Positions 11,654 to 64,000 of a stretch of DNA of 64,000 nt are shown piece by piece. This DNA comes from an uncultured Clostridia bacterium (GTDB lineage Bacteria > Bacillota > Clostridia > TANB77 > CAG-508), in the NCBI GenBank assembly GCA_947623285.1, contig CANQGP010000001.1:99384-163383 (forward strand), given 5' to 3'. The translations under genes and the position numbers were made by a program. The first letter of the stretch is position 1, and every line of letters begins with the position of its first letter. Under the pieces are notes generated by a model that searched no databases, was not told where the DNA came from, and saw only the letters and a program-made list of their open reading frames with translations.

Positions 11654-11664
11654 AATATAAATTT

Positions 11665-12705: not shown

Positions 12706-13066
12706 TTTTCTCCTCTTTCTCATCTTCTAGCTTTTTTACTCTTTTCTTTAATATAGAAAGTTCTTGAATAATTGCTGTATTTTTTTTATTTTCTTCTGCT
12801 AACTTTATTGTCATATTAAATATTAAATAAAATGCTATAAATATAGTTAAGCAAAATACCATATTAGATGGCGCTATAAATCCTAGTTTATGTGAAACAA
12901 ATTCTACTAAATTTGGTATTGCAAGTGCTACTATTAATATAATTCCACTTACTATCCAAAATACTGAAAATGAAATTTGTAAATTCTTTTTATTAATTGC
13001 TTTTATTAGTATTAATATATATACTAATGTTATAGCAATCAATACGATTCTTAATATAATTGGCAT
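12695..13066 (-). CDS. DUF2304-like small membrane protein (GT2-associated)
   Basis: 123 aa with 3-4 TM helices and a charged coiled C-tail. It lies directly downstream of a ~230-aa GT2, the usual GT2/DUF2304/DUF2142 arrangement. Confidence 0.6.
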   Translation of the reverse strand: MPIILRIVLIAITLVYILILIKAINKKNLQISFSVFWIVSGIILIVALAIPNLVEFVSHKLGFIAPSNMVFCLTIFIAFYLIFNMTIKLAEENKKNTAIIQELSILKKRVKKLEDEKEEKNGK

Positions 13067-13091
13067 TTGTCTTGTTTCCTTTCTTCTCTAA

Positions 13092-13790
13092 TTATACTTT
13101 TTTTATACTATCTATTAAAATAGCTAAAGATACCTTTATCATATAATCTATACTTTTGAATATATTTATAGAAGATTTTCCACCTTCTCTTTCTCTCATG
13201 CTAACAGGTACTTCTACAACTTTATACTTTCTTTTTAGTACATCTACTGTTGATTCTGGTTCTGGATAATCGGTGGGATATTTTTTAGCAAACAACTCTA
13301 TTATCTCTTTATCCACTGCTCTAAATCCAGAAGTTGGATCTGTTATTTTTTTATGGCAACATATCCTTATTATGAAAGAAATTATATTTTTTCCCAATCT
13401 TCTCATAAAAGTAGATTGAAATTCACTTGAGCTTTTGTCCAAATATCTTGTTCCAATACACATATTTGCTTCACCTTTTCGCACTGGCTCAATAATTTTT
13501 TCTACATAACTAACATCATGTTGTCCATCTCCATCATATTGAATAGCAATATCATAATTATTTTCATATGCATATTTATAACCAGTTTGAACCGCTCCAC
13601 CTATTCCTAAATTATGTATTAAATTAATATGATTAATATTATTTTTTTCTAGTATTTCTAATGTTTTATCTTTCGAACCATCATTTATTACCACATAATC
13701 TATATCTGGTCTTTTTTTATCTATTTCCTTGCATACTCTTAATATGTTTTCTTCTTCGTTATATGCTGGAATTATTAGTAGTGTTTTCAT
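13092..13790 (-). CDS. Glycosyltransferase family 2 (DPM1-like, soluble)
   Basis: 232 aa with LLIIPAYNEEENI, VINDGSKDKT and QYDGDGQHD motifs. Confidence 0.8.
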   Translation of the reverse strand: MKTLLIIPAYNEEENILRVCKEIDKKRPDIDYVVINDGSKDKTLEILEKNNINHINLIHNLGIGGAVQTGYKYAYENNYDIAIQYDGDGQHDVSYVEKIIEPVRKGEANMCIGTRYLDKSSSEFQSTFMRRLGKNIISFIIRICCHKKITDPTSGFRAVDKEIIELFAKKYPTDYPEPESTVDVLKRKYKVVEVPVSMREREGGKSSINIFKSIDYMIKVSLAILIDSIKKV

Positions 13791-13842
13791 TTTATTTATT
13801 CCTCCTATTGGTATTATTGTACTTGTAAAAATCTGCTAATTT

Positions 13843-15405
13843 TTATGCAATAAAGAATTTATATACAGCATTTATCGCAAACAAATTCAAAATGCTTAAA
13901 ACAATTGGTATCTTTAGAGTTATATTTTTTATTTTTATATAATTATTTTTCATACACATTGTTAATAGGATTGTAATAATAACAGGTATAAAATATCTTC
14001 CTTGAATTCCGTATATTACAGTACTTCCTGCTCCTGACCATGAAATAAACATGAATGTTTCTATTATTAATATCGTACCTATTCCAATCATTAGTACCCA
14101 TAACTTCTGTTTCTTATTTAATGCCTGTTTATTATCTTCTACAAAAGCTGAAAATAACACTGTAAACATTATCAACATTATTATTCCTCTGTTCACCTCA
14201 ATATTTGTACTACCTAATTTTATTCCTACTAACATTTCCATATAATTGCATCCTTCAGTCTCCCAATCTTTAATTATTACATTTGCAAAACTATCTGGAT
14301 TTTTTATAATATATTTAACTTGCTCTGATGTATTTACGTTAAACTTTTCATTATATCCTGTTATTTCTCCTAAAGATATATATTGCATAGATATTATATA
14401 CATTACAATTGCTACTATTATTCCTACTAATATGGCTGTTGGTATCACTATGACTTTTTCTTTTTTGCTCATATTTTTCTTAAAAGCCAACATTAATATT
14501 AACCCTAGAAAAGGAACATATATTGTTTTTACTATTCCAACTAAGCAACTTAATGCTATCAAACATATTTGTTGCTTTCGCTCTATATGTTTATCTTGAA
14601 AAATTAATTTTAAAATATAAGCTATAAATACAATAAACACTGAATTTGTTATACTGTCTGCTGAAAATGAAACTTGTTGATGTATCACCATTGGCATAAA
14701 CAAATATGCTGCTAACAATATTTTTCCAAATGGTATGGTTTTAATTGCATAATATCCCAAAGCTAAGAATATAATAAAATTAAATATTTTCCCTAAAAAA
14801 ATTCCTATTAAAATACTTACTCCACAAATTCTAGCAATTAAAAATCCTAATGCTGAACCTATATATAACACAAAAGCATAATTTTGAGCCGAAGATATTA
14901 CTTGCACTGTATCATTATAATTTGTTTGTTCAGTAACTTTTCCCCTTAAATCACTATATTTATCTATTTTCGTTTGTTGATATTCATATAAATCTTTTGG
15001 AATATTAGTATGAGAAGTACCGTCCTCTTCTATTGGTGTTATTAATATTCCTTTTGATATTTCATAAGCTTTCCATAAATGTGCACTTTCATCTGGTACT
15101 TGTCCTGGTAAAACAAAAACCAAATACATGGTTCCCACTGGTATCATAAAAGTTAAAAACATCTTTTCTATAACATTTTTATCTTTATAACAACAATATA
15201 TTAAACATGCAATACTTAAAATCATATACATTATTCCAATAATCAAATAAGTTTTATGATAATATCCATCAAGTTGCTTTATTGTAATCACTTTATATAT
15301 CGCGACAATTGATATTAAAAAAAATATAAATTCCAATACATATCTAATCACATATATCTTTTTTTCTGCCCACTTTATTTTTTCTATGATTTTGTCAATT
15401 GACAT
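13843..15405 (-). CDS. DUF2142-like polytopic membrane protein (GT-C candidate)
   Basis: 520 aa with more than 10 TM helices. The first loop has the VPDESAHLWKAYE (PDE..H) motif. It forms a gene trio with the GT2 and the DUF2304-like gene. Confidence 0.55.
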   Translation of the reverse strand: MSIDKIIEKIKWAEKKIYVIRYVLEFIFFLISIVAIYKVITIKQLDGYYHKTYLIIGIMYMILSIACLIYCCYKDKNVIEKMFLTFMIPVGTMYLVFVLPGQVPDESAHLWKAYEISKGILITPIEEDGTSHTNIPKDLYEYQQTKIDKYSDLRGKVTEQTNYNDTVQVISSAQNYAFVLYIGSALGFLIARICGVSILIGIFLGKIFNFIIFLALGYYAIKTIPFGKILLAAYLFMPMVIHQQVSFSADSITNSVFIVFIAYILKLIFQDKHIERKQQICLIALSCLVGIVKTIYVPFLGLILMLAFKKNMSKKEKVIVIPTAILVGIIVAIVMYIISMQYISLGEITGYNEKFNVNTSEQVKYIIKNPDSFANVIIKDWETEGCNYMEMLVGIKLGSTNIEVNRGIIMLIMFTVLFSAFVEDNKQALNKKQKLWVLMIGIGTILIIETFMFISWSGAGSTVIYGIQGRYFIPVIITILLTMCMKNNYIKIKNITLKIPIVLSILNLFAINAVYKFFIA

Positions 15406-15477
15406 TTTACTTTTCTCCCCTTATTTTTTTATAATATATCATACTAGCCATAATTATACAATAAATAAACTTTGTTA

Positions 15478-17609
15478 CTATTTTATGACTTTATATATTA
15501 ATAGACCTTTTTCATTATATTTTTCTTCAAATTTCACTTCTTCATTGCTAAGCTCTTCCAAATTTCTAGTTGTCAAAATATATCCTACATTTAATTCTTT
15601 TACTTTATCTACACTAATATATAATTTAATACTGTCACTATACAAAAGTTCCACTTTATTTTCGTTACTGGTAATTTCAACAGTAATATGTGCATAACGA
15701 TTATAAATTTGTCTATTTTCTACCAATTCACTTTTTTCTTCCAAAACAACATCAAACAATTCCTTGTTTGGATATATATTAGTAGAATTTATAACTTTAG
15801 CTCCACTTGCCAAAATATAATTTGGTATATAGAAGGATGTACTATCTACAAGCCATAAATTATTTTCTTTATCTTCTGTTACAATTTTTTGTACTTCTTT
15901 AGCAACTGGCTTATCCCTCATAACTGATATACCTTTTTGTATTGGATTTACTGTAACTCCTGTTATAATTGAAATTATAATTAAAGTATAAATTAATCCT
16001 TTTTTATGATTTTTTCTGTTTATATTCACTAGTAAATATATTTGTAACAATAAGACAATTCCACAAGCTATTAATCGAATTGGTGTAAGTAGATTTTCAC
16101 TATCAGATATTTTTGCTAAATACATTAATATTATCTCTAATATAATAGTGATAACTATAGCCACTTTTTTTCCAAATAATTTAGTGTTTTTATCTACTTT
16201 AGCTAATAAATAAATTAATAACAATACTTGAGTAAAGCCCAAAGGCACAGCCATTCTTGTCGCTGGAACCATATAAAGTAAAGTAAATCTTGCAAATACT
16301 TTATTAGTTGGTATATGTGACCATACTCCAAATACTACCCCTAATATTAGTAATGGAATTAAAAATACTAAATTTTCTTTTGCCTCTTTTTTATTTCTAA
16401 GAATATATACAACTGAAAGTATCATCGGAATTGGGAAAAGCGAAATCATGCCTGAAAGTTCACTAGGGTTATTCACTCCTATATAAGGGAATAAATAAGA
16501 ATACACATATGAATATACTACTTTTAAAGCATTTCCACCTATCTCAAATCTATCTCCCGGATAATCAGTATTCATTACAGCATTCAGTGCATTTTTTGAC
16601 ATCATATAATATCTTACACCGGATTCCAGCAGCAATTAGAATTACTGAAATGATTATTAACACATCTTTCCAGTTGACTTTATAAACTTTTCTGTTTTTC
16701 CATATTATCCAAATTAATACTGCTAGATAAATGTATCCATATGGTATTTGCCAAGCCGGGTACATTGTAAATACATAAGATATGCCTGATATCAATATTC
16801 CACATGCACATAGGATTTTCGTTTTATATTTTTCACTTAGCATAAATTTATCAATTAATACAAGTGCTAACATTCCCCATATTAATATTCCTGTTGAATT
16901 CCACCATTGCGTTGCTGCAGAAAAAGTTATTAAAAGCATTCCACAAGCTGAAACAAATTTATTTTTATTGGTAATTAACATACAAAACTCAAATGAAATC
17001 AACATAAGTGCTACTAATTTACCATACCAATCAAATGTTAATCCTCTTTCCGAACCAAATAACATATAACCTATTGTAAATGGTTTTCCTAAAACTAATA
17101 TGTCTGCAACTGCTGGACTTATTGCGGAAAACATATCTGTAGATGTACCTCGTAGCAAATCATTATAATATGCATATTTATTTTCATTTTCTTCAGCTGA
17201 TTGTGATAAAAATATTGGCATATTAACACACCATTCATCTGAACGTATACTTCTTGCAGTTCCGAAGTACTGGTGTTTGATATTCTTCCCATGCTTCTGG
17301 TTGAATTACTTGTGCATACATTCCAATTGATGAACCAGAGTAGCCAAATACCATAACATATATCATAAAAACTAAAGCAATCCAATATCTTTTATCACAA
17401 ATGAATCCATACATTTTATTTAATGGAATAATAAAATGTAGTAAGAAAAAGAATACTGCTCCTGCAATAATTATACTTCTATCCCATATAATATAACTTC
17501 TAGTTACAGTTATTATAACTCCTACTAAAATTGATATAATTGCAGATATTATTAATTTTTGAGTTCTATAATTTTCTTTGTTAAATATCTTTTTTAGTTT
17601 TTCTTTCAC
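15478..17609 (-). pseudogene. Large polytopic membrane protein with C-terminal soluble domain, interrupted by two single-nucleotide frameshifts
   Basis: ORFs 17235..17609, 16565..17221 and 15478..16635 are consecutive pieces. At ~17250-17270 the frame changes between ...EEYQTPVL and (F)GTARSIRSDEWCVNMPIF. At ~16615-16635 it changes between ...VILIAAG and SGVRYYMMSKNA. Confidence 0.6.
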
Positions 17610-36834: not shown

Positions 36835-37473
36835 ATGAAAAATTTAAGAACAGAAAACAAAGTTATAACATATACAATAAGCAAGGTTGCAGATAGTAAA
36901 GACATGTATATATCAGTACAAAATGGCGAAGTGGAAATTATCGCTCCGTATAATTATTCAAACAAACATATACAAAAAATAATAGAAGAAAAAAGAGATT
37001 GGATTTTAAAAAAAATTGAAGAATATAATTTTAAAAATCCAGAAGAATTTAATGGAATTGAAAGAAATCCTGTTAAAATTTTAGGAAGAGAATATAGAAT
37101 AAAAATTAACTATAAAAATATTAATGTTGCAGAATTAAATGTTGAAGAAAATGATATAAAAATAACTTTATCTAATACATATAAAAGAAAAGACAATAAA
37201 AAAGTTTTAACATTGGCTATAGATAAATTATATGAGAGCATTGCTCCGGCTGAAATTGAAAGAGCTATGGAAAAAACAAGAATTTTATTAGGATATGCAC
37301 CAGAAGATTACAAAATTGCAAAAATAAAAAATGCTTATGCTAAATGCACAAAAAATATTATAACTATAAATCCTGAAATAGTAAAATTCAATAGAAAAAC
37401 AATAGATAAAATTATATTAGAACAATTCTTAAAAATAAGAAAATCATGCATAAAAAAAAGAGTAAATCTGTAA
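36835..37473 (+). CDS. YgjP/DUF45 (M48-like) family protein lacking the HExxH motif
   Basis: The N-terminal pattern (ITYTISKV...YISVQNGEVEIIAPYNYSNKHIQKIIEEKRDWILKK) is typical of DUF45. The position of the HExxH zinc site reads ILEQF, and the protein contains only one His. Confidence 0.5.
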   Translation: MKNLRTENKVITYTISKVADSKDMYISVQNGEVEIIAPYNYSNKHIQKIIEEKRDWILKKIEEYNFKNPEEFNGIERNPVKILGREYRIKINYKNINVAELNVEENDIKITLSNTYKRKDNKKVLTLAIDKLYESIAPAEIERAMEKTRILLGYAPEDYKIAKIKNAYAKCTKNIITINPEIVKFNRKTIDKIILEQFLKIRKSCIKKRVNL

Positions 37474-37834
37474 GCCGGGTTCTGTCATTTAAAATAGTCA
37501 TTTATCTAGAGTATATATCACTATATACTTCAAGCCACACATGTAAGAAGCGCCGAGCAAGCGTATCTTCTAATTTAGGTGTTGCTCCAGATGGGGTTTA
37601 CATTGACCTGCTATGTCACCATAGCAGCGGTGAGCTCTTACCTCACCTTTTCACCCTTACCACGTGTTTCTCAAATTTCTAAGAATTTTGAGAAATATGT
37701 GGCGGTTATTTTCTGTTGCACTTTCCTTAAGGTTGCCCTCACTAGACGTTATCTAGCATCTTTGCTCTATGGAGCCCGGACTTTCCTCTCGTAATTCCTT
37801 TCGGAAATTTACCAGCGACTATTCAATTTACTCT
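37459..37834 (-). ncRNA. rnpB: RNase P RNA, bacterial class A
   Basis: The minus strand contains GAGGAAAGTCCGGGCTCCATAG, GTGCAACAGAAA, GGTAAGGGTGAAA, GGTAAGAGCTCACC, CTAGATAAATGACT and ACAGAACCCGGCTTA. The P1 helix pairs AGAGTAAAT (5') with ATTTACTCT (3'). An extended -10 TGATATAAT (37843-37851) lies just upstream, and a T-run follows the 3' end. Confidence 0.9.
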
Positions 37835-53876: not shown

Positions 53877-54173
53877 TTAGCTAACTTTTTTTGTTATCTC
53901 TTTTTCTGATAATCCTGTAATATCTGCTATTTCTTCAATTGTCATCCCTCTATCAAGCATCTTCTTGGCAATTTCCATTTTACCCTCTATTCTGCCTTTT
54001 TTCTCGCCTTTCTTTTCTCCTTTTAAGTAAGCTCCTCTTTTATTCATCATTTCATCAAATCTAGCTTTTTCTTTTAACCATAACATTCTCTTAGCTTGTT
54101 CATTTGCTACTGCTTCTTCACGTAACTTTTCTGCTCTTGCTATTTTTTCATTTTCTTTTACAGCCATTTCCAA
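53877..54173 (-). pseudogene. 3' fragment of an Rpn/YhgA-like gene
   Basis: The 98-aa ORF is almost identical to the C-terminus of ORF 57120..57950 (MAVKENEKIARAEKLREEAVANEQ...), with an 8-aa EKKGRIEG insertion. The N-terminal nuclease domain is absent. Confidence 0.7.
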
Positions 54174-54430: not shown

Positions 54431-55288
54431 TTACAATTTTTCTATTTCCTCTTTTGTTAGTTCTGTTAACTCTTCAATTTCCTTAACAGACATACCTTTT
54501 GCTTTCATTTTTTTTGCTATTTGCTTTTGTTTGTTTTTTTCACCTTCAGCACGTCCTTCTTCAGTTGCTATTTCTAAATCCATCTCTCGGTCAAATCTTA
54601 TTCTATCTTTTATTCGCAAAATTTCTCTTGTTTCTGGGTCTGCTAATGCTTCTTTCAATAATTTTTCTGCTTTTGCTACTTTATCATTTTCTTCAATCGC
54701 CATTTCAAGTTCCTCCTTATTTTCTTGGCTTATGAAATATAACCATTGAGATAGTTTTTTCTTGTCTTTTTTATTTTGTTTTAAAAATTTTGGTAGTTGT
54801 ATAAAATACATTTGTATTTTATCTGACATTACTGTTTTATCACTGTCCCATCTAAATCTTGCACTATCTATGTAATTATTTCTTCCAGCTATATTGTATG
54901 ATAATATACTAACTATTATTACTTCTTTGTTGTTTTTATACCCCTCGCCTTCTTTCATTTCTTCTGTATATAAATTCGAAGCATAATATATATCTCTATC
55001 CTCCATGTCTTTTTTGTCTACTATTTGCATTTCAACATCTACTATTTTGTGTTCATCTATTGTTACTTTTAAGTCTATTCTTCCACCTTTTGTATCATTA
55101 TACATTTTTTCTAATGTATACTCATTTGTAATATTTATATTATTAATTTTTATATTTAATATTTCTTCTAGCATTTCTTGTAGCATATCTTCATTTCCCT
55201 TAGATGCAAAGATTTTTTGAAATAAAAAATCATTTTGTGGGGTCATTGATTTATCTACCTTATTTTTTTCTAATTGGTTATTGTTCAT
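54431..55288 (-). CDS. Rpn/YhgA-like PD-(D/E)XK recombination-promoting nuclease (putative transposase family), copy 1
   Basis: PQNDFLFQKIFASKGNEDMLQEMLEEIL... plus a C-terminal helical HTH-like tail. The ATG at 55288 lies 7 nt after AGGAGG. Confidence 0.7.
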   Translation of the reverse strand: MNNNQLEKNKVDKSMTPQNDFLFQKIFASKGNEDMLQEMLEEILNIKINNINITNEYTLEKMYNDTKGGRIDLKVTIDEHKIVDVEMQIVDKKDMEDRDIYYASNLYTEEMKEGEGYKNNKEVIIVSILSYNIAGRNNYIDSARFRWDSDKTVMSDKIQMYFIQLPKFLKQNKKDKKKLSQWLYFISQENKEELEMAIEENDKVAKAEKLLKEALADPETREILRIKDRIRFDREMDLEIATEEGRAEGEKNKQKQIAKKMKAKGMSVKEIEELTELTKEEIEKL

Positions 55289-55488
55289 TAAATTCCTCCT
55301 TATTTTAACACTTTTCGTTTTTTTACGCAAGTGTTTAATTTTACTTTGTATGTTTATTAGCACAATTTTCTTACAATTAAATTTTAAAATTTTCTTTGGA
55401 TTTTGTTTCTGAAACGAAACTAATAGATTTTGAATTTTGAAAAAAATAAATCATTTATAATTTTGTCCATTACTTTAAAAGCATTTCC

Positions 55489-55516
55489 ATTATATAACTT
55501 TTTAAATTAATGTCAA
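55489..55516 (-). promoter_or_regulatory. Promoter of Rpn copy 1
   Basis: The minus strand reads TTGACA (55511-55516), a 16-nt spacer, then TATAAT (55489-55494). This is a mirror image of 56920..56947. Confidence 0.55.
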
Positions 55517-55898
55517 TACTTACAATGCAAGAATTCATCGCAAATATTGACATTTTTCGACAAATAAAAAATAGCACTAATTTGTGCTATAAAAACAGTT
55601 ATAAATTAAATTAAGAATAAAATTTAGTTTTGAACCGTCAAGAAATCCTTGACAGTTGAAATTTCTTCTAATTCTTCCTCGTCAAAAATATTTTTTATAT
55701 GTAAGCTAATATTTTGCTTTGTTGTATTAAATAATTCAATCTTTTTTTGAAAAGTGCTAAATAAATATACTCCTGATTAGTAGGAATTATTTTACTAATA
55801 TTGCCTAAAATGTTATAAGCAGAATCTTCTAGGCTCATAGTTGTTACATTTTTATAAGTAATAAAAAATGAATATTATTAATAAGAGAAATAAAATGT

Positions 55899-56310
55899 TT
55901 GCAAAAATTGGTAAAAAATGGTATAAATATTGTGGGTATGATTGACACTGTTTGCAATGGCTTCTGGTTAGCTTCTCCTTCAGCCAACAACACTAACAAT
56001 GTTATGCTTGTGAACTATAACGGCAATGTCAGCAATAACAACTATAACAATAACAATTATAGCTTGCGCCCCGTAGCTTCCAAAAAACTGTGGTTGCATT
56101 GAACTAAGGTAATGCAAGAGAAGTTTTGGAGGAAACAAATCATATCCATTAATGGATTTATAAGATAAAAATACAAAAAATTATTGACAATTTTTATAAG
56201 TCTAATTATAAAATAAAAATAGATAATCAAGCTTGTTAGTAAAATTAATATTTGAAAGGAAGTTTAATTTAGGACTGTTTTTAATAGTACTTGGGATAGT
56301 GCTATTTTTT
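55899..56310 (+). repeat. DGR TR-like cassette A1 (promoter, 124-nt TR at 55953..56076, conserved spacer, terminator)
   Basis: TTGCAA-17-TATAAA promoter (55899-55927). The 124-nt segment is colinear with the VR and rich in AAC/AAT codons. Hairpin TTGCATT/AATGCAA at 56094-56117. Terminal hairpin plus T-run at ~56284-56310. Confidence 0.75.
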
Positions 56311-56460
56311 ATTGTATGGAAGAAAAATAGCTAGATTTTTAAATATACAACAATGTTATTTTTTCTATATTTATGCGATTATAAAGCAACTTATACATGT
56401 ATCCAAGTAAATTTTATAAATAATAAAAAATGAATGTTATTAATAAGTGGAATAAATTGT

Positions 56461-56872
56461 TTGCAAATATTGGTAAAAAATGGTATAAATATTGTGGGTA
56501 TGATTGACACTGTTTGCAATGGCTTCTGGTTAGCTTCTCCTTCTGCCAACAACACCGACAATGTTATGCGTGTGAACTATAACGGCAATGTCAACAATAA
56601 CAACTATAACAATACCAACTATAGCTTGCGCCCCGTAGCTTCCAAAAAACTGTGGTTGCATTGAACCAAGGTAATGCAAGAGAAGTTTTGGAGGAAACAA
56701 ATCATATCCGTTAATGGATTTGTAAGATAAAAATACAAAGAATTTTATTGATGATTCTTACAAGTCTAATTATAAAATAAAAATAGATAATCAAGCTTGT
56801 TAGTAAAATTAATATTTGAAAGGAAGTTTGATTTACAACTGTTTTTATAGCACAAATTAGTGCTATTTTTAT
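56461..56872 (+). repeat. DGR TR-like cassette A2 (TR at 56515..56638), best match to the VR
   Basis: Same architecture as A1. By-eye alignment to the VR gives 16 differences, 13 of them at TR adenines. Terminator ATAGCAC..GTGCTAT-T5 at ~56847-56870. Confidence 0.75.
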
Positions 56873-56919
56873 TTGTCAAAAAATGTCAATATTTGCGATG
56901 AATTATTGCATTGTAAGTA

Positions 56920-56947
56920 TTGACATTAATTTAAAAAGTTATATAAT
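56920..56947 (+). promoter_or_regulatory. Promoter of Rpn copy 2
   Basis: TTGACA, a 16-nt spacer, then TATAAT, followed by a ~165-nt leader. Confidence 0.55.
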
Positions 56948-57119
56948 GGAATTGCTTTTAGAGTTAATAGACAAAATTAAAATGATTTATTTTTTTCAAA
57001 ATTCAAAAGTTCCGAATCAGGAACGAATATCCAAAAAAATTAATAATTTTACGAAAGTTTTTATTTATTTAGCACTTGAAAGATAAGCTAAAAATATGTT
57101 AAAATAAAGGAGATATATA

Positions 57120-57950
57120 TTGGAAAAATATAACATACATGAGACACCACAAGATGATTATCTATTTCAAAGAATATTTGCATCAAAGGGAAATGAAGAT
57201 ATGCTAGCGGAAATATTAGAAGATTTGCTAGACATAAAAATAAATAATATAGAAATAAAAAATGAATTTACACTAGAAAAAATTTATCAAGAAGAAAAAA
57301 GTTCAAGAATAGATATAAAAGTGGTGGCAGATAATAGAATAATAGATATAGAAATGCAGATAAAGAATGAATATAATATGAAGGATAGGAGCTTATATTA
57401 TGGAGCTGCATTATATCATGAAGCATTAGAAGAAGGAATAGATTATAAAGATAGCAAAGAGGTTATAGTAATAAGTATATTATCATTTAACTTATTTAAA
57501 AATGGAAACTACCTGGTTAGAGGGAGAATAATGCGAGATGATATAAAAGATGAAGTAATAACAGATAAACTAAGTTTTTATTACATACAATTACCAAAAT
57601 TTCTAAAACAAAAAGATAAAAAAAGAAAGAAATTGGCTCAATGGTTATATTTTATAAGCCAAAGAGATAAGGGGGAATTGGAAATGGCTGTAAAAGAAAA
57701 TGAAAAGATAGCAAGGGCAGAAAAATTACGTGAAGAAGCAGTAGCAAATGAACAAGCTAAGAGAATGTTATGGTTAAAAGAAAAGGCTAGATTTGATGAA
57801 ATGATGAATAAAAGAGGAGCTTACTTAAAAGGAGAAAAGAAAGGTAAAATGGAAATTGCCAAGAAGATGCTTGATAGAGGGATGACAATTGAAGAAATAG
57901 CAGATATTACAGGATTATCAAAAAAAGAGATAACAAAAAAAGTCAGCTAA
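57120..57950 (+). CDS. Rpn/YhgA-like PD-(D/E)XK recombination-promoting nuclease, copy 2
   Basis: 276 aa with PQDDYLFQRIFASKGNEDMLAEILEDLL.... TTG start 6 nt after AAGGAG. Paralogue of 54431..55288. Confidence 0.7.
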   Translation: MEKYNIHETPQDDYLFQRIFASKGNEDMLAEILEDLLDIKINNIEIKNEFTLEKIYQEEKSSRIDIKVVADNRIIDIEMQIKNEYNMKDRSLYYGAALYHEALEEGIDYKDSKEVIVISILSFNLFKNGNYLVRGRIMRDDIKDEVITDKLSFYYIQLPKFLKQKDKKRKKLAQWLYFISQRDKGELEMAVKENEKIARAEKLREEAVANEQAKRMLWLKEKARFDEMMNKRGAYLKGEKKGKMEIAKKMLDRGMTIEEIADITGLSKKEITKKVS

Positions 57951-57982
57951 GATAAGTTTAATTTAAAACTGAATAGTGTAAA

Positions 57983-58030
57983 ATAAAGTGTGTAAGTTAT
58001 CAGTAACAAAACTTATGCACTTTATTTATA
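57983..58030 (+). terminator. Terminator after Rpn copy 2
   Basis: 16-bp stem ATAAAGTGTGTAAGTT / AACTTATGCACTTTAT (two G-U pairs), followed by a T-rich tail. Confidence 0.5.
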
Positions 58031-58096
58031 CTACTAACTTAATAAAAAAGTGAGTAACTTTACACAAACTTTCCGATATTTTCACATTTTCTATAC

Positions 58097-58505
58097 AATA
58101 AAAAATAGTACTCATTTCAAGTACTATTAAAAACAGTTGTAAATCAAACTTCCCTTCAAATATTAATTTTACTAACAAGCTTGATTATCTATTTTCATTT
58201 TATAATTAGACTTATAATAACTATCAGTAAAAATATTTGTATTTTATCTTAAATAATTTTTTATAAATCCAATTAAAGGACATAATTTGTTTCCTCCAAA
58301 ACTTCTCTTGCATTACCTTAGTTCAATGCAACCACAGTTTTTTGGAAGCTACGGGGCGCAAGCTAAGGTTGTTATTGTTATAGTTGTTACGGTTGATATT
58401 GCCGTTATAGTTCACATTCATAACCCAGTCAGTGTTATCAGCGGAAGGAGAAGCTAACCAGAAGCCAACGCAAACAGTGTCAATTATGCCCTTATTATTT
58501 TTATA
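58097..58505 (-). repeat. DGR TR-like cassette B1 (TR at 58349..58472)
   Basis: Reverse complement of the A-type unit: TR, conserved spacer, and a terminal hairpin at 58104-58128. It keeps the TATAAA -10 (58500-58505) but has no clear -35. Confidence 0.7.
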
Positions 58506-58511
58506 TTAAAA

Positions 58512-58910
58512 TTTTAAAAATAGCACTGATTAGTGCTATTAAAAACAGTCATAAACCAAACTTCCCTTCAAATATTAATTTTACTAACAAACTTGATTAT
58601 CTATTTTTATTTTATAATTAGACTTATAATAACTATCAGTAAAAATCTTTGCATTTTATTTTTATAAATCGAATTAAAGGACATAATTTGTTTCCATCCA
58701 AAACTTCTCTTACATTACCTTAGTTCAATGCAACCACAGTTTTTTGGAAGCTACGGGGCGCAAGCTAATGTTGTTATTGTTATAGTTGTTGTTGCCGACA
58801 TAGCCGTTATAGTTCACATTCATAACATTGTTAGTGCCGTTAGCGGAAGGAGAAGCTAACCAGAAGCCCCAGCAAACAGTTTCAATTATACCCATTTTTT
58901 ATATTATTTT
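58512..58910 (-). repeat. DGR TR-like cassette B2 (TR at 58751..58874)
   Basis: Same unit. The terminator hairpin at 58520-58539 abuts cassette B1. Confidence 0.7.
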
Positions 58911-59004
58911 TCTTTTGTATTCAAAACTAATTAAGTACACTTTATAATATCTATCTCAAATTTTTTTAGTTATTTTGTGAATATAATCTTGTGGTTAATT
59001 TTTA

Positions 59005-59345
59005 TAAATAAAAATAGCACTAGTTTTCGTGCTATAAAAACATTTATAAATCAAATTTCCTTTCAAATATTAATTTTACTAACAAATTTGACTATATGTT
59101 TTTATTTTATAAATAAATTATTTTCAAATTTATTTAAAAGACATGACTTGTTTCCATCCAAAACTTCTCTTGCATTACCTTAGTTCAATGCAACCACAGT
59201 TTTTTGGAAGCTACGGGGCACAAGCTAAGATTGTTATTGTTATAGTTCGTATTGTTGACATTGCCGTTATAGTTCACATACATAACATTGTTAGTGTTGT
59301 TAGCGGAAGGAGAAGCTAACCAGAAGCCATTGCAAGCAATTTCAG
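59005..59345 (-). repeat. DGR TR-like cassette B3 (TR at 59211..59334), in the canonical position just downstream of avd
   Basis: Same unit, but the distal spacer is more diverged. It is the only copy whose 3' GC-rich end reads GCTTGTGCCCCGTAG (T instead of C) rather than the VR sequence. Confidence 0.7.
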
Positions 59346-59474
59346 CCATGCCTTAATTATTTTATTAACAAATGAAATTTATTTGAGTTGTTATCAACCG
59401 GAAGGATTTCCGATTACTTAACATTTTCGATAGTCTCATTTAAAAATATTCCATTTAATTTAAATAATTGCCTT

Positions 59475-59894
59475 TTATCCTTCTACTGTTACTTTATATC
59501 CTGATGTTTTCTTTACCTCAGTAGCATCAAATTGTTTAGTAGATTTCCCTGCTTTTAATTTTTTCATCCAACCAGTTGTATATTTAGTTATATCATCCAA
59601 TCTTTGTGCTAATTTAAAATATTTCTTTTCCGTTATTAATTTTTTATCATAACTTAAATTCACTAAAAAATCTATAACCTTAACTTTTGCTATCATTTTT
59701 AATATTAATTTTACTTTATATTCTCTTTCTTCAGTAGCATTAGCTTCATATGAAGTCTCCAATAAATCAAATGTATTAGTCCTTATTCTATGTTTTATTT
59801 CAATATCTTTTTTAGGATAATTTTCAAGTTCTTTATCTATTACTAAAATAAAATCTCTAATAAATTGAATAACTCTAAACTTATCTTCTCTCAT
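59475..59894 (-). CDS. avd: DGR accessory variability determinant (Avd, four-helix-bundle protein)
   Basis: 139 aa, basic and all-helical (FRVIQFIRDFILVIDKELENYPKKD...KYFKLAQRLDDITKYTTGWMKKL). It lies between the target gene and the TR. Confidence 0.7.
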   Translation of the reverse strand: MREDKFRVIQFIRDFILVIDKELENYPKKDIEIKHRIRTNTFDLLETSYEANATEEREYKVKLILKMIAKVKVIDFLVNLSYDKKLITEKKYFKLAQRLDDITKYTTGWMKKLKAGKSTKQFDATEVKKTSGYKVTVEG

Positions 59895-59900
59895 TTTACT

Positions 59901-60335
59901 TTAACCTTCCTTTATGACTTTTTCAATATTTAATATTTTTTTATTAAAATCTTTTTCATACATGTTTTTCATCAAATATTCATTTATCATATCAATTTTT
60001 CTTTTGCAGTTTACATATCTCCTTGCTTTTTGGTCAAATCTTTCATATCTATTTAAATTTCTATAATTTACTTTATCTTCAACATCATAATTATTTCTTC
60101 TATCAATCGTTATATAATTTATTTTATTATCCTCCAATCGTCTCATCACTTTTGAAATAGCATTAATAGGGAATCCACATTCTACAATATTATCATCTAT
60201 GTTTTTCACTTTATAATCAAAAAAATATGATAAAATATATGCATCTTTTCCAAAAACATGATAAAACCCTCCCATTCTAAACAAACATATATCTTTTGTA
60301 TGAATTTGTTTTATGCTTTTTATCATTTCATTCAT
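59901..60335 (-). CDS. MutS-domain-I-like DGR accessory protein (MSL type), copy 2
   Basis: 144 aa. ICLFRMGGFYHVFGKDAYIL...ECGFP aligns to MutS domain I. It ends 6 nt before the avd start. Confidence 0.6.
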   Translation of the reverse strand: MNEMIKSIKQIHTKDICLFRMGGFYHVFGKDAYILSYFFDYKVKNIDDNIVECGFPINAISKVMRRLEDNKINYITIDRRNNYDVEDKVNYRNLNRYERFDQKARRYVNCKRKIDMINEYLMKNMYEKDFNKKILNIEKVIKEG

Positions 60336-60503
60336 TTCTATATCTTCCTCCTACTTTATATTGTTTTTTATTATATATCTAATTTCTACATTTTTTTATT
60401 TTTATTTACAAAAAGCTACTTTTCGTTTATGAAATTCGAAATTTTATAATTTACGCAAAAAGAATACCCACGAGCAAATGCTCAGGGGTATTCTTTTTGC
60501 TAT

Positions 60504-60541
60504 AAAAAAGCGAGTACCGGACCACCGGCCCGGTGAACTCG
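60504..60541 (-). terminator. GC-rich terminator hairpin after the DGR target gene
   Basis: The minus strand reads GCGAGTTCACCGGGCCGGTGGTCCGGTACTCGC followed by T6. It is strikingly GC-rich for this genome. Confidence 0.6.
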
Positions 60542-60578
60542 CAATATGTAAGTTTTAATTAGTATTTAAATTTAAGTT

Positions 60579-63500
60579 TTAGCTAATATTCCATTTGTTA
60601 TTTGAACCCTTTGTGATTGAAACAGATTCGGGAAGATAAACTACGGGGCGCAAGCTATAGTTGGTATTGTTATAGGTGCTAGTGTTGACACTGCCGCCAT
60701 AGCCCACACGCATAACACTGCTAGCGTAGTTAGCAGAAGGAGAAGCTAACCAGAAGCCATAGCAATTATTCCAAGCGGAATTCGTGCTAGGATGAGGATA
60801 ATAAAGAGTATTCTTCCAACCCGCATATTTCTGTATAACTGAACCATCTATATAAGTTGAAGTTCCTTTATCTGATGTACTTATAAAATATCCGGTGGTC
60901 GTTGGGGTTGCATTGCAATATATCTTCTCTGTTGGATATTTAGCATTCCAACTTGCACACCATAATTCAATCGTCGGACTTCCTATTGCCTGTGCTCCTT
61001 TAGATTTTAGATCTGATGTTACAAATTGATTTGTCCATACACTTGTATCTAATAATTCTGCTACTGCTTTTGTATTATTTTGTGATTGACTCTTTGCTTT
61101 ATCGTAATATGCTCTTGTGAAGAATCTATCCGCTAAGGTTGTAGAAGTAATTACATCCGCTATTGAATTACGTTTCCATCCACTTCCTGACCAATACACA
61201 TTATATGTATTACCTTTCGTCATACTTGTTCCTGATGGAAGATTAGAATTATTCATATAATCTCCTGCTATTAAATATTTGTCTCCTCCATTTGCGTAGA
61301 ATAATTTCCAATCTGTTATTCCTCCGCATGAATAATTTGTATCTCCTCCAAATTCTTCAGGGTCTGAAGGTTTAACCGCAGTTTCCCAAACTGCATACAA
61401 TGTCAAATCTTTTTCTTCTGATACACTAATTTCATCTCCTGCTGAACTCTTTGGATATGTTGGATTTGAACTTTGCCCTGAACTTGTACTCCATCCAAGG
61501 AAGTTAAATCCTTCTTTTGTCGGTTCTGTTGTTGTTAATTTTGGCTTATCGTATTCGATACTTGTGCCACTATAGTTTTTATATGCTGTTCCCTCGGAAT
61601 CAGGAATTGTATTACTAGTTCCATTTTTTCCGTCTTGCAAATCATATTTGATTTTTACTGTTTTCTGATATGTCTGATAGTACTCTGCACTTTCTTTGAC
61701 TTGGCCTATTGAAGCGTTATTGTCATATGATTTTTCGGCTTTTGCAGAAGTTCCATCAGATGCCCAGTATCTATTATTATATCCACTTGGTTTTTGAGTA
61801 TCTCCTGGTTGTCCAAGGTTTACATTTTTTGGATATTGTGGGCTATTTCCTACTGATTTTATTGTGAATGTTAAATCATCCATTGTTGCAGATTGCCATA
61901 CATGTCTTGTTATTTTCTCTGTTTTTGTATGTCTTGCATAATATGTTATATATGGATTTGTTTCACCATTTGCTAAATTAATTTTTGTTTCTTCATATCC
62001 ATCTGATGTTTTTACCCATCCGTCGAATGTCCATGCTCCCGTATCTGAAGGTGTTTTTATTGTGCTTCCAGATGGTGCATTCGTTATTGCTAATCCCTTT
62101 GTTTCTTCATTAGCACGAAGTAATGCTTGTGCATTTACTTTTTGGGTTGAATTGTCTCCAAATGTATATGTTATTTCTACTGGATATGTATAAACCATGT
62201 GATATGTTGTGTCATTAAATAGTTCTTCAGTTGGTTCTCCACCTAATGCTACATCTGGGTCTGCTGTTATAGCAGAGGTGCTCTTTAGCCATCCTTTAGG
62301 TGTTGCTGTTACATTTTTTGAGCTATTTATTGATGCACTTACTGTATCACTTGCACTTCCTCCTAAGTTTGGTTTTACTCCTGTTGCTTCACCTTTGTAG
62401 TTTCCTACAACTGTTGTATTTCCTACCTGACTTTCGGTGTTTTTATATGTTACTTTTGTTATTTTTATATCTTTCTTATATACTGCATAATACGTTGTTC
62501 CTAGTTGTACTGTAGGAGTTACTGGATCTGAACCTGTTTCTACATTTGTTACTCCCACATAAGGTATTCCATCTTTTCCTGTACTATTTGAAACTGCTAG
62601 TGGAACTGTTATTTTTTCATCATCTTCTATTTTTCCTGCATAGTTCATTTTTGCTCCTACAGAAGTTGTTGTTCCTGCGCTAGAAGGTTCTCCATTATAT
62701 CTAAATGTTATTGTTTGTGTTGATTCATATAATGCATAATATTTTGCATCTTCTAATGCTTCTATTTCTTTATCATTTGCTGTAATTGTATCTGGTGTTG
62801 GGTCATCTTTATCTGTTTCTGCAGCCCATCCTCTTGATGTATAATTCGTATTTGCTGTTGGGGCATGTCCTATGCTTTTCTTAAATGCTACTGTCGTATT
62901 ATCATATTTTTTATATGCTGGACCTGTCAATGGTTCCATTGTTGCACTATCTCCATCTTGTGTACCGTTGTAAATGACTCTAGTTACTGTTACTTGCTTA
63001 CTATATAATGCATAGTAATCTATATCAGTTGCTGGAGAAGCTGGTGCTTTATTTGGATGTTGTGCTGAAGGCTCTAAATCTTTTTCTGCCTCTAGTACCC
63101 ATCCTTGGAACTCCCATGTTGCATCTTCTGTATCTGTTGGTGCTTGTAGAGTTGCACCTGTTTGAGTATTTTTATAATCTATCGTTTTATTAGGATTTTC
63201 TACTTGTGTTTTACCTTTATAATGGTATGTTACGGTTATTCCTTTTTGATATACCATATAGTAGTTATAAGCTGCTGCTTCTGCATCTAATTCTATTTCT
63301 GCTTTATTTCCTTTTATTTCAACAAATGCGTCAGTTACAGCTGCATCTGCTTGGTTTGACCAACCTTTTGCTGTAAATCCATCTTCTAATCCTACTGTAG
63401 GTGTTGTATCTCCTGTTTGTAGGTCTACTTTAGGTTTTACTAAACTGTCGTCACTGTAACTTCTATATGCTGTTGCATTTATAACCTCTAATGATTTATT

Positions 63501-64000
63501 TAAGTAAACTGTTCTGTTTACTGTTAAGTCTTTCTTAAATGTTGCTGTTAATGTATCACTTTTATCTGTAACACCTACTGCTGGGTCTACTATTGAGCTT
63601 TCGTCTGTCAAGTCATCTGGGTTTGTTGTCCAACCTCTCCATGACCAACCTTTGCTTTCTAATTCTGGTGGAACTGTAGGGTTTTGAATTGATGGGTCTA
63701 ATCCTCCACCTTGATTATTTCCTTCTGAGTCGGTGTATACATCTTGTTGTTTTTGTTCTGTTTGTCCATCTCCTGTTTGTACTTGTGTTGAAATTGAGTG
63801 TTTATATATTGCATAATAATTTGTATCTTGTAATATTTGTGCATCTCCATTATTTTCAACATCTGGTTTTTGTACATCTGCTCCACTTTGTAAGTTTTTC
63901 AAAAACCAACCAACTGGCTCTGCTGTTTCTCCATCTATTGTTGCATTATCTGCTTTTCCTAAGTTTATTGTTGCTGGCTGTGGCTTATATGTTTGAGATG
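60579..64000 (-). CDS. DGR target: large surface protein with Listeria-Bacteroides (InlB B-repeat / Flg_new) repeats and a C-terminal variable ligand-binding module; 5' end outside the window
   Basis: The frame stays open to the right edge, so the M at 63902 is a TTG artefact. At least 8 repeats end in (G/R)W...D, and the last reads EGFNFLGWSTSSG...DLTLYAVWE. The C-terminus is NCYGFWLASPSANYASSVMRVGYGGSVNTSTYNNTNYSLRPVVYL. Confidence 0.8.
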   Translation of the reverse strand, partial: SQTYKPQPATINLGKADNATIDGETAEPVGWFLKNLQSGADVQKPDVENNGDAQILQDTNYYAIYKHSISTQVQTGDGQTEQKQQDVYTDSEGNNQGGGLDPSIQNPTVPPELESKGWSWRGWTTNPDDLTDESSIVDPAVGVTDKSDTLTATFKKDLTVNRTVYLNKSLEVINATAYRSYSDDSLVKPKVDLQTGDTTPTVGLEDGFTAKGWSNQADAAVTDAFVEIKGNKAEIELDAEAAAYNYYMVYQKGITVTYHYKGKTQVENPNKTIDYKNTQTGATLQAPTDTEDATWEFQGWVLEAEKDLEPSAQHPNKAPASPATDIDYYALYSKQVTVTRVIYNGTQDGDSATMEPLTGPAYKKYDNTTVAFKKSIGHAPTANTNYTSRGWAAETDKDDPTPDTITANDKEIEALEDAKYYALYESTQTITFRYNGEPSSAGTTTSVGAKMNYAGKIEDDEKITVPLAVSNSTGKDGIPYVGVTNVETGSDPVTPTVQLGTTYYAVYKKDIKITKVTYKNTESQVGNTTVVGNYKGEATGVKPNLGGSASDTVSASINSSKNVTATPKGWLKSTSAITADPDVALGGEPTEELFNDTTYHMVYTYPVEITYTFGDNSTQKVNAQALLRANEETKGLAITNAPSGSTIKTPSDTGAWTFDGWVKTSDGYEETKINLANGETNPYITYYARHTKTEKITRHVWQSATMDDLTFTIKSVGNSPQYPKNVNLGQPGDTQKPSGYNNRYWASDGTSAKAEKSYDNNASIGQVKESAEYYQTYQKTVKIKYDLQDGKNGTSNTIPDSEGTAYKNYSGTSIEYDKPKLTTTEPTKEGFNFLGWSTSSGQSSNPTYPKSSAGDEISVSEEKDLTLYAVWETAVKPSDPEEFGGDTNYSCGGITDWKLFYANGGDKYLIAGDYMNNSNLPSGTSMTKGNTYNVYWSGSGWKRNSIADVITSTTLADRFFTRAYYDKAKSQSQNNTKAVAELLDTSVWTNQFVTSDLKSKGAQAIGSPTIELWCASWNAKYPTEKIYCNATPTTTGYFISTSDKGTSTYIDGSVIQKYAGWKNTLYYPHPSTNSAWNNCYGFWLASPSANYASSVMRVGYGGSVNTSTYNNTNYSLRPVVYLPESVSITKGSNNKWNIS
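60641..60764 (-). repeat. DGR variable repeat (VR), 124 nt, ending in the GC-rich IMH-like GCTTGCGCCCCGTAG
   Basis: Colinear with the five TR segments. Homology stops exactly after CCCCGTAG. Most differences from the TRs fall where the TR has A. Confidence 0.8.

Follow-up and report, generated by a model that had tools for sequence, protein, structure and literature searches.

An array of template-repeat cassettes beside a single variable repeat in a diversity-generating retroelement of an uncultured Clostridia bacterium

Diversity-generating retroelements (DGRs) have been described as systems in which one invariant template repeat (TR) writes one or more variable repeats (VRs). In the DGR discussed here, several templates probably write one VR. 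The element is located on a contig of an uncultured Clostridia bacterium (CANQGP010000001.1, positions 99,384 to 163,383), a stretch of 64,000 nt that is referred to as the window and whose numbering is used below unless another sequence is named. On the minus strand, the target gene is followed by the genes for a MutS-like protein (Msl-2) and an Avd-like protein and by the template cassettes B3, B2 and B1; after B1 come an Rpn gene on the plus strand, the inverted cassettes A2 and A1, another Rpn gene and a fragment, and the convergent reverse transcriptase (RT) gene (Table 1). The RT gene lies 2-5 kb from the templates, beyond the Rpn genes. Canonically, there is one TR per RT, which adjoins the RT or avd; in contrast, five TR units are present in the window and seven in a sister strain.

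The best match of the RT among solved structures is 8ub7_A (E 9e-30), with retron and group II RTs at 1e-7, and the RT motif IGSMTNQ aligns to IGSLTSQ of 8ub7_A, with N replacing S. This structure has been deposited only as 'Reverse transcriptase' and is presumably the bRT of the Bordetella phage DGR. None of the NCBIfam models matched the RT at cutoff. The start of the RT gene is overlapped by the 3' end of the gene for another MutS-like protein, Msl-1, and this Msl/RT gene pair is also observed in relatives. The Avd-like protein scores 37.5 bits with bAvd (cutoff 40) and 40.9 bits with DivGenRetAVD (cutoff 80; E 2e-10) and has no other matches, and its gene is found at the position of products annotated as bAvd in relatives. 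The target is a giant surface protein with Listeria-Bacteroides repeats, 2663 aa in full length in assembly L011, and the VR lies 62 nt before the stop of its open reading frame (ORF). The VR region has a weak match to DUF6273 (E 0.0085, below cutoff), and a single-sequence AlphaFold (AF2) model of the target C-terminus did not give a usable fold (pLDDT 31).

Table 1. Features of the DGR locus in window coordinates.
Feature	Position	Strand	Remarks
Msl-1, MutS-domain-I-like accessory, 133 aa	52440..52841	+	Pfam MutS_I E 3.8e-09, above cutoff
DGR reverse transcriptase, 326 aa	52838..53818	+	RVT_1 match; convergent with target operon
Inverted copy of cassette terminator end plus ~140 nt	55428..55610	-	Left arm of inverted repeat bracketing A1-A2
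A1 leader	55919..55943	+	TGGTATAAAT at 55919-55928, extended -10-like; leader box GGGTATGATT at 55934-55943
TR A1	55953..56076	+	124 nt; 40 A, 15 AAY codons
A1 3' RNA domain	56077..56312	+	Helix, stem-loop, long-range strand, long hairpin, terminator hairpin
TR A2	56515..56638	+	124 nt
A2 3' RNA domain	56639..56876	+	Terminator 56847-56866; 96-97% identical to the 3' domain of sister cassette C7
Rpn / PD-(D/E)XK_2 putative transposase	57120..57950	+	PDDEXK_2 E 6e-45; TIGR01784; between the two cassette groups
Cassette B1	58100..58491	-	Leader box 58491-58482; 3' domain and terminator to ~58100
TR B1	58472-58349	-	124 nt
Cassette B2	58512..58893	-	Leader box 58893-58884; 3' domain to ~58512
TR B2	58874-58751	-	124 nt
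Cassette B3	59008..59353	-	Leader box 59353-59344; 3' domain and terminator to ~59008
TR B3	59334-59211	-	124 nt; cassette directly downstream of avd
Avd-like accessory, 139 aa	59475..59894	-	Pfam bAvd and NCBIfam DivGenRetAVD, both sub-cutoff
Msl-2, second MutS-domain-I-like accessory, 144 aa	59901..60335	-	Pfam MutS_I E 3.1e-09
Terminator hairpin of target gene, GC-rich	60516..60534	-	~100 nt past VR; only stable hairpin downstream
Target gene, 3' part	60579..64000	-	Flg_new repeats; gene runs off the window
VR	60641..60764	-	124 nt; last 41 codons before a short C-terminal tail

Six copies of the 124-nt repeat are present in the window, the five cassettes and the VR, and neither an exact-core search nor a search with three mismatches found any further copy in the window. 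All five cassette TRs run into the same sequence, CTTCCAAAAAACTG, whereas the VR ends a long ORF. A preliminary description of the window had listed the codons at which the five segments differ, and the codon table gives this same list (2, 10, 11, 12-16, 19, 25-29, 34-36 and 39). The codons that it quoted are exact: in the order A1/A2/B1/B2/B3, codon 19 is ctt/cgt/aat/aat/tat and codon 36 is tat/tat/ctt/att/ctt, and ggc is found at codon 13 in B2, cgt and aac at codon 28 in B1 and B2, respectively, tgg at codon 16 in B1 and tgc at codon 39 in B3. Four of the five cassettes were also correctly said to have the 3' core of the VR, AGCTTGCGCCCCGTAG; the exception, B3, has TGTGCCCC.

The GC-rich core GCGCCCCG is common to the VR and the cassettes. 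Directly after GTAG, the identity between VR and cassettes ends and the sequences beyond are unrelated; therefore, a distinction of the IMH/IMH* type (initiation of mutagenic homing) may exist between the VR and the cassettes. A VR-proximal DNA hairpin of the kind known from the BPP-1 DGR was not found within ~100 nt of the VR, except for the gene terminator. Both alleles of the target end, ~100 nt after the VR, in a GC-rich hairpin clamped GCGAGT...ACTCGC (window 60516-60534; L022 ~9290-9325), which resembles a terminator amid a very AT-rich region and may also act in target recognition, in the manner of the BPP-1 cruciform. After CCCGTAG, both VR alleles look like a 5-nt insertion before cassette-flank-like CT... 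(window 60629-60641; L022 9205-9220), with TTTAT+CTTCC and TTAAG+CTAAAA in the VRs and CTTCCAAAA in the cassettes. This 5-nt offset may be due to chance or may be a trace of the integration junction.

A cassette extends beyond the 124-nt repeat alone and forms a unit of ~400 nt. In an RNA alignment of 13 cassettes (five from the window, seven from the sister strain and one from a relative), the TR is directly followed by ~90 conserved nt, and a variable insert separates these from a second conserved block (~115 nt), after which a terminator hairpin is found; the consensus fold has 53 pairs, 14 of which show compensatory change. The stem-loop just after the TR has four forms: TTGCATT/AATGCAA, TTGTATT/AATACAA in three sister cassettes, TTGCATT/AATGTAA (with a G.U pair) in B2 and TTGTGTT/AACACAA in relative L026. 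In addition, a 10-bp long-range helix pairs the leader box GGGTATGATT, which starts 19 nt upstream of the TR in the window cassettes, with AATCATATCC, ~60 nt downstream of the TR. Across the 13 cassettes, 99.2% of the cells of this helix are paired and five of its ten pairs are compensatory, while none of 500 shuffles matched it and slid controls paired at 38-58%. In the 3' domain of A1, the 3' strand AATCATATCC of this helix lies at 56138-56147, together with a helix CTTCCAAAA/TTTTGGAGG and the inner stem-loop TTGCATT-N10-AATGCAA (56094-56117). The stem-loop and the duplex between upstream and downstream sequences are found in all 12 cassettes, and also in L026 and L010 (in L010 by eye).

Cryo-electron microscopy of the BPP-1 RNA has revealed an Avd-binding stem-loop just downstream of the TR and an avd:Sp duplex, the 'cPRT Stop', and of 278 DGRs with Avd, 207 were predicted to have both elements (bioRxiv 10.1101/2023.10.23.563531). 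The stem-loop and the long-range helix of the cassettes correspond to these elements, and the helix CTTCCAAAA/TTTTGGAGG, which is followed by AAAC, could occupy the place of the template:primer duplex and the priming adenosine. As each cassette has a leader box, a TR, a stem-loop, a closing helix and a terminator, every cassette appears to be a complete DGR template-RNA gene. The A1-type leader is conserved upstream of A1, A2 and most of the sister-array cassettes. A promoter scan of 55600-60700 was uninformative (31 matches, with 36 expected from shuffles), and what points to cassette promoters are the conserved TGGTATAAAT boxes and the inverted orientation of A2. Because A2 is inverted relative to avd and yet is a donor of the window VR (see below), it would need its own transcription and is probably transcribed independently.

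No Rfam family was found for the cassettes; the sole match, Hairpin-meta1, is sub-threshold and due to chance (E 0.26). Small in-frame ORFs that run through A1, A2, B2 and B3 were considered as genes and rejected, because their 'ATG' sits in the leader box, which is conserved as a strand of an RNA helix. This ATG is out of frame in C7, the sister cassette that was checked, and is replaced by ATA in B1. Cassettes A1 and A2 are bracketed by inverted repeats (I7 and I14), in which 55428-55610 is 90-95% complementary to 56827-57008 over ~183 nt; the left arm and the end of C7 in L001 share 98.9% identity. The block of A1, A2 and the Rpn gene is inverted relative to the sister strain and has the same orientation in all window-type assemblies. 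Inversion switching of the A1-A2 block is possible; the alternative orientation was not observed among the window-type assemblies seen.

Other assemblies of the locus were collected by exact-protein look-up with the RT and the Avd-like protein. All of these are metagenome assemblies and may not represent independent samples. L002/L011 spans the whole locus and differs from the window at 27 of 13,692 positions: 23 in the VR, four elsewhere and none in the cassettes. All five cassettes are unchanged in L012 and L013, as is B3 in L014, and the complete VRs of the window type differ from each other.

The donors of these VRs were fitted using dynamic programming that charges non-adenine mismatches only. 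The window VR is best described as A1 (1-55) joined to A2 (56-124) and the L002 VR as A1 (1-54) joined to B1 (55-124), each with one residual non-A mismatch, and the L012 VR as B3 (1-38) joined to B2 (39-124) with none; the best single donor leaves three, six and four non-A mismatches for the window, L002 and L012 VRs, respectively. Template adenines were changed at 14/40, 18/41 and 16/39 positions in the same order, and A>G accounts for 30 of these 48 changes. The markers of A2 are CGT at codon 19, ACC at codon 34 and TAT at codon 36, and VR codons 19 CGT, 34 ACC, 35 AAC and 36 TAT are jointly compatible with A2 only. B1 is marked by ATC at codon 26, CGT at codon 28 and CTT at codon 36, and B2 by GGC at codon 27, xxC at codon 28 and ATT>GTT at codon 36. 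Since the 3' markers lie within 50 nt of the VR-specific flank, the 3' donor assignments appear robust. The 5' part of the L012 VR is compatible with B3 and with no other cassette, and the partial VR of L013, of which the contig starts inside the VR, is a second, different B2-derived sequence. In this way, A2, B1, B2 and B3 have unique donor assignments, and A1 is one of two candidates for the 5' segment shared by the window and L002 VRs: B3 fits equally, with one mismatch either way. Contigs L013, L014 and L025 begin within the VR or precisely where its invariant 3' end lies, which hints at VR heterogeneity within samples, because assemblers break where reads disagree.

In the sister strain (L001/L022), the RT is identical to that of the window and the two sides are 99.3% and 99.0% identical. 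The sister allele covers the last ~260 target codons, Msl, Avd and the templates, which form an array of seven tandem cassettes, C1-C7. Assemblies L022, L023 and L024 have identical cassettes and three different VRs. The VR of L023 is C4 over its full length without mismatches, and the VRs of L022 and L024 are C3+C7 and C5+C1, respectively, without residual mismatches. The L024 VR (L024 9085-9205) is 121 nt, compared to 127 nt in L022 and L023, and its target is 2638 instead of 2640 aa; it is 6 nt shorter because the short 5' part of C5 and a 3-nt deletion of C1 were inherited. VR length variation of this kind cannot be reached by a single-template DGR. Over both arrays, the six complete VRs have 11-21 adenine-site changes each, corresponding to 29-53% of the template adenines, and 0-1 non-adenine mismatches. 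Donor signatures are observed for all five window cassettes (A1 as a shared candidate) and for five of the seven sister cassettes (C1, C3, C4, C5 and C7), and all five mosaic VRs consist of two segments, are 3'-anchored and lack internal patches. Together, this makes it probable that each of the five segments is a complete template-RNA gene, that all belong to one chromosomal DGR and that several of them donate to a single VR. This multi-template DGR is the main result.

The preliminary description had proposed that the cassettes have themselves been subject to adenine mutagenesis, for which enrichment of their differences at consensus adenines would speak. Among the five TRs, 30 of 124 columns are variable. 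With tied columns set aside, 16/40 consensus-A columns are variable versus 12/82 non-A columns (odds ratio 3.9, Fisher p = 0.003), and the enrichment is therefore present. In 300 nt of downstream flank of the same cassettes, the corresponding counts are 30/97 and 31/129 (p = 0.29), with a total column variability of 23% in the TR and 27% in the flank. Inside the 16 consensus AAY codons, the adenine columns (15/32) and the third positions (6/16) vary equally (p = 0.76). Therefore, the contrast is one between AAY codons, with 21/48 variable columns, and all other codons, with 9/75: hypervariable codons vary, rather than adenines, and the feature of the TR that stands out is its conserved non-A scaffold positions. 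As had been stated, the amino-acid-changing cassette codons are mostly also variable in the VR (13/14, Fisher p = 5e-5), although this test is partly circular because some of the VR variation is inherited from the cassettes.

Both adenines of one codon are altered in the same cassette six times, with 1.6 expected (permutation p = 1e-4), and for four of the seven third-position changes, an adenine of that codon is altered in that cassette as well (TGG twice, GAT and ACG). These whole-codon replacements, AAT>TGG at codon 2 of B2 and codon 16 of B1, AAC>GAT and AAC>ACG, involve a change of the third base and can therefore not be produced by A-mutagenesis. Per cassette, 5-20% of the adenines are altered, scattered among intact AAY codons, versus 35-44% in the window-type VRs, and 12-15 AAY codons, compatible with the reading frame, are retained. 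Recent unselected self-homing accounts less well for the pattern in the window than a relaxed or diversifying constraint on ligand-contact codons, and old mutagenised input to the window cassettes may have occurred. On a short time scale, the TRs are invariant: within each type, no assembly departs from the others in its cassettes, and the VRs are different. Unchanged cassettes beside a varying VR are what the preliminary description had named as refuting its proposal, and self-mutagenesis is not taking place at any rate near that of VR turnover. It has been reported that strains of T. denticola carry differing TR variants (PMC4891356).

In the sister array, C3 gives a different picture. Over its 3' 85 nt, C3 has 13 differences from C5, and each of them falls at a C5 adenine (13/30 A, 0/55 non-A). 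Twelve are A>G and one is A>T, at a VR-like density of 43%, and the probability of this by chance is ~0.35^13 = 1e-6; the other cassettes have 4-19 non-A differences each to C3 over the same 85 nt. In the 5' 45 nt of C3, all AAY codons are kept, and its upstream region and 3' domain are nearest to C4 (82%, 93% and 80%) and not to C5 (49%, 84% and 75%). Since all 13 differences fall at C5 adenines and the flanks are C4-like, a template was overwritten by adenine-mutagenised sequence, in the form of a C5-templated, 3'-anchored tract written into C3. The rule of an invariant TR has thus been violated at least once historically. This write-back may have taken place through retrohoming into the cassette or through gene conversion from a C5-derived VR. 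C3 still donates, as its signature AGT AAT is found in the L022 VR. The possibility that C3 is a relic VR was ruled out by its cassette-type leader box, 3' domain and terminator.

In the proposed mechanism, a single RT would use the cassettes in trans, together with the Avd-like and the two MutS-like accessory proteins, and the helix between leader box and downstream strand would close around the TR. In a retrohoming event, a stretch of the VR that always includes its 3' end would be overwritten, and the resulting VR would derive in full from one cassette or, as a 5'/3' mosaic, from two, with randomisation at ~29-53% of the template adenines. In the Bordetella system, the 3' integration of cDNA has been mapped to the GC element, and short homology suffices for integration at the 5' side (PMC3240598). 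Template switching of the RT between cassette RNAs in one event would be an alternative to sequential overwriting and would give the same pattern. The differences between cassettes would be stable and inherited, and a non-A cassette codon (Trp, Arg, Leu, Gly, Ile and others) would be hard-wired in every VR written from that cassette. In this manner, the array would add a combinatorial layer, as well as residues such as Trp, beyond AAY mutagenesis from one TR. The differences would have arisen by duplication and subsequent divergence, concentrated in hypervariable codons that tolerate or favour change, with a constrained scaffold and with rare write-back of adenine-mutagenised sequence into a cassette.

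Several points weigh against a multi-template DGR as described here. In the window and L002 VRs, one non-A mismatch, at codon 11, is not accounted for by the 5' donor, and a mosaic VR could in principle be the consensus of co-existing VR variants. The window-type assemblies have closely numbered ENA accessions and only four substitutions in 13.7 kb outside the VR; therefore, cassette invariance is shown only over the time scale of VR turnover. Expression of the separate cassettes is deduced from sequence features, and selection on the cassette codons would follow from clustering at the level of codons.

The differences between cassettes could also be mainly the result of adenine mutagenesis of the templates, by self-homing or by seeding from mutagenised cDNA or VR sequence, perhaps as an ongoing process. 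The A-site enrichment in the TR and its absence in the flanks, the clustering of double-A changes by codon, the GC-rich 3' core common to cassettes and VR, and the tract in C3 are in line with this. The same holds for the proportion of differences from the consensus that fall at adenines, 8/11 in B1 and 7/9 in B2. However, TGG (twice), GAT, ACG, GTC>ATC and CGC>TGC require changes of other bases, adenines and third positions of AAY codons are equally variable, the altered adenines are few per cassette and scattered without a tract, and the cassettes are identical in all assemblies despite repeated VR turnover. A GC core in common with the VR is not unusual, as BPP-1 shows the same (PMC3240598), and the unrelated sequence past GTAG may set the VR apart from the cassettes in an IMH/IMH*-type manner. 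The proposal is partly supported, in that template mutagenesis has taken place as a rare event in the sister array; the differences in the window neither need template mutagenesis nor are fully explained by it, and as a general account it is unlikely.

According to another explanation, the cassettes are old duplications that drift neutrally, with one working TR (for example B3, by avd) and decaying copies elsewhere. In its favour, column variability is similar in TR and flanks (23% and 27%), and canonical DGRs and close relatives have a single TR. This explanation is very improbable and is already contradicted by the donor signatures in the VRs, which include the markers of A2, B1 and B2 and, in the sister array, of C1, C3, C4, C5 and C7. 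The scaffold is moreover conserved, each cassette has kept its frame-compatible AAY codons, and RNA helices are maintained via compensatory changes in every cassette. In Borrelia vlsE/vls and Neisseria pilE/pilS, segmental mosaics arise at a single expression site from partial donor copies arranged in an array. The array of partial gene copies beside one expression site, with mosaic products, resembles such silent-cassette antigenic variation, in which transfer is by RecA-type gene conversion without reverse transcription. As an explanation of the locus, this has the lowest probability of all. Transfer is unfaithful here, as ~29-53% of the template adenines, and hardly any other bases, are changed; genes for a DGR-type RT, an Avd-like protein and Msl are present; the cassettes have conserved RNA structure and terminators; and all five mosaics are two-segment and 3'-anchored, without internal patches. 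In contrast to the gene conversion in vls/pilS, the transfer at this locus would be a 3'-anchored, mutagenic reverse transcription.

Compared to known systems, the locus shares with the BPP-1 DGR (avd-TR-brt, target mtd) an adenine-specific TR-to-VR transfer into the 3' end of the target, a homologous RT (8ub7, E 9e-30), an Avd-like protein, a GC-rich element in the 3' ends of TR and VR, an RNA stem-loop immediately 3' of the TR and a duplex of TR-upstream with TR-downstream sequences. In BPP-1, a (GC)14 element is identical in TR and VR and directionality resides in the next 21 bp (PMC3240598). However, BPP-1 has one TR between avd and brt, whereas here five stand-alone TR genes are present (seven in the sister strain), two of the five inverted, with a convergent RT separated by Rpn genes, two MutS-like genes, no hairpin adjoining the VR and a VR that appears as a multi-template mosaic. 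DGRs that contain MSL are a known minority architecture, 'Architecture D' of Wu et al. 2018 (PMC5758913), and Msl has been found in DGRs of Legionella and Bacteroides (PMC11601372). These also combine a small MutS-domain-I protein with Avd, RT and TR, but have been described with a single TR (PMC5758913, PMC11601372) and not with two Msl paralogues and a TR array. More than one TR per RT has been observed in surveys, for example two TRs and six VRs in the DGR of Stenotrophomonas sp. SKA14 (PMC6642488). In such multi-TR DGRs, several TRs occur with several VRs or targets and no evidence was given of several TRs writing the same VR; unlike the present locus, they were not described as arrays of five to seven complete RNA genes with mosaic products. 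A full-text search found no published description of a stand-alone template array that writes a single VR, an absence that is not proof.

Close relatives have the single-TR form. One TR/VR pair each is present in L015, L016-18 and L019-21 (RT 75-80% identical; pairs of L015-L021 located by repeat search), L026 (Avd 72%), L009 and L010 (a metagenome-assembled genome, MAG, from GTDB). In L026, L016, L019, L015 and L010, of which the RT or Avd is 72-80% identical to that of the window, the order is likewise target, Msl, Avd, TR and a convergent RT (the RT-proximal Msl was seen in L026), and L026 and L010 have the same TR 3' domain with compensatory variants. In these relatives, exactly one TR unit occupies the gap of ~400 nt between avd and RT, compared to five in the window. 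The conserved post-TR element was not found in L015-L021 using a pattern search with up to nine substitutions. A scan of genome contigs for this element found it in one MAG only, uncultured Clostridia iMGMC-826, which has two canonical single-TR DGRs, and a scan of metagenome contigs gave no matches.

If several templates indeed write one VR, the consequences would include template-specific fixed residues such as Trp, changes in VR length and shuffling of segments by sequential 3'-anchored overwriting, which together would multiply the accessible repertoire. The locus is also a natural experiment on TR-to-VR directionality, with one cassette clearly overwritten, and the compensatory changes in its twelve paralogous cassettes mark out how little RNA a self-contained DGR unit requires. 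For engineering by programmable DGR mutagenesis, it is directly relevant that such a stand-alone TR gene is compact (~400 nt), would act in trans and could be multiplexed. A more tentative idea, possible but doubtful at present, is that the array can evolve through the retroelement itself, with cassettes that occasionally receive adenine-mutagenised cDNA or VR sequence and keep VR states that were successful or recent as an archive of new, hard-wired templates. If true, a heritable and slowly updated memory would be layered over the fast diversification of the VR, and the non-A codons scattered over B1 and B2 would go back to early write-backs, trimmed afterwards by selection and recombination between cassettes.

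The two arrays are part of alternative module alleles that comprise the target C-terminus (~260 aa), Msl-2, Avd (72% identical) and the array of five or seven cassettes. The module spans 55563-61368 in the window and 12726-18845 in L001, with 99.0-99.3% identity on both sides, and one of its crossover points coincides exactly with the 3' end of the last cassette's TR (A2/C7). The orthologues A2 and C7 are 96-97% identical in the 3' domain and 76% in the TR; overwriting of the TR was considered for this divergence and rejected, as the crossover point of the allelic module swap is a simpler explanation.

Two MutS-domain-I paralogues occur in one DGR, with Msl-1 translationally coupled to the RT and Msl-2 upstream of avd, and this layout is also found in the single-TR relative L026. 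Genes of the Rpn/PD-(D/E)XK_2 'recombination-promoting nuclease' type are located between the RT and templates at 53877-54173, 54431-55363 and 57120-57950, and relative L019 has four tandem Rpn copies at the equivalent position (11534-16039). These genes may be passengers or may help to duplicate or invert cassettes. The genome is low-GC, and a single Rfam family reaches the gathering threshold in the window, bacterial class A RNase P RNA (37455-37834, minus strand, 295 bits).

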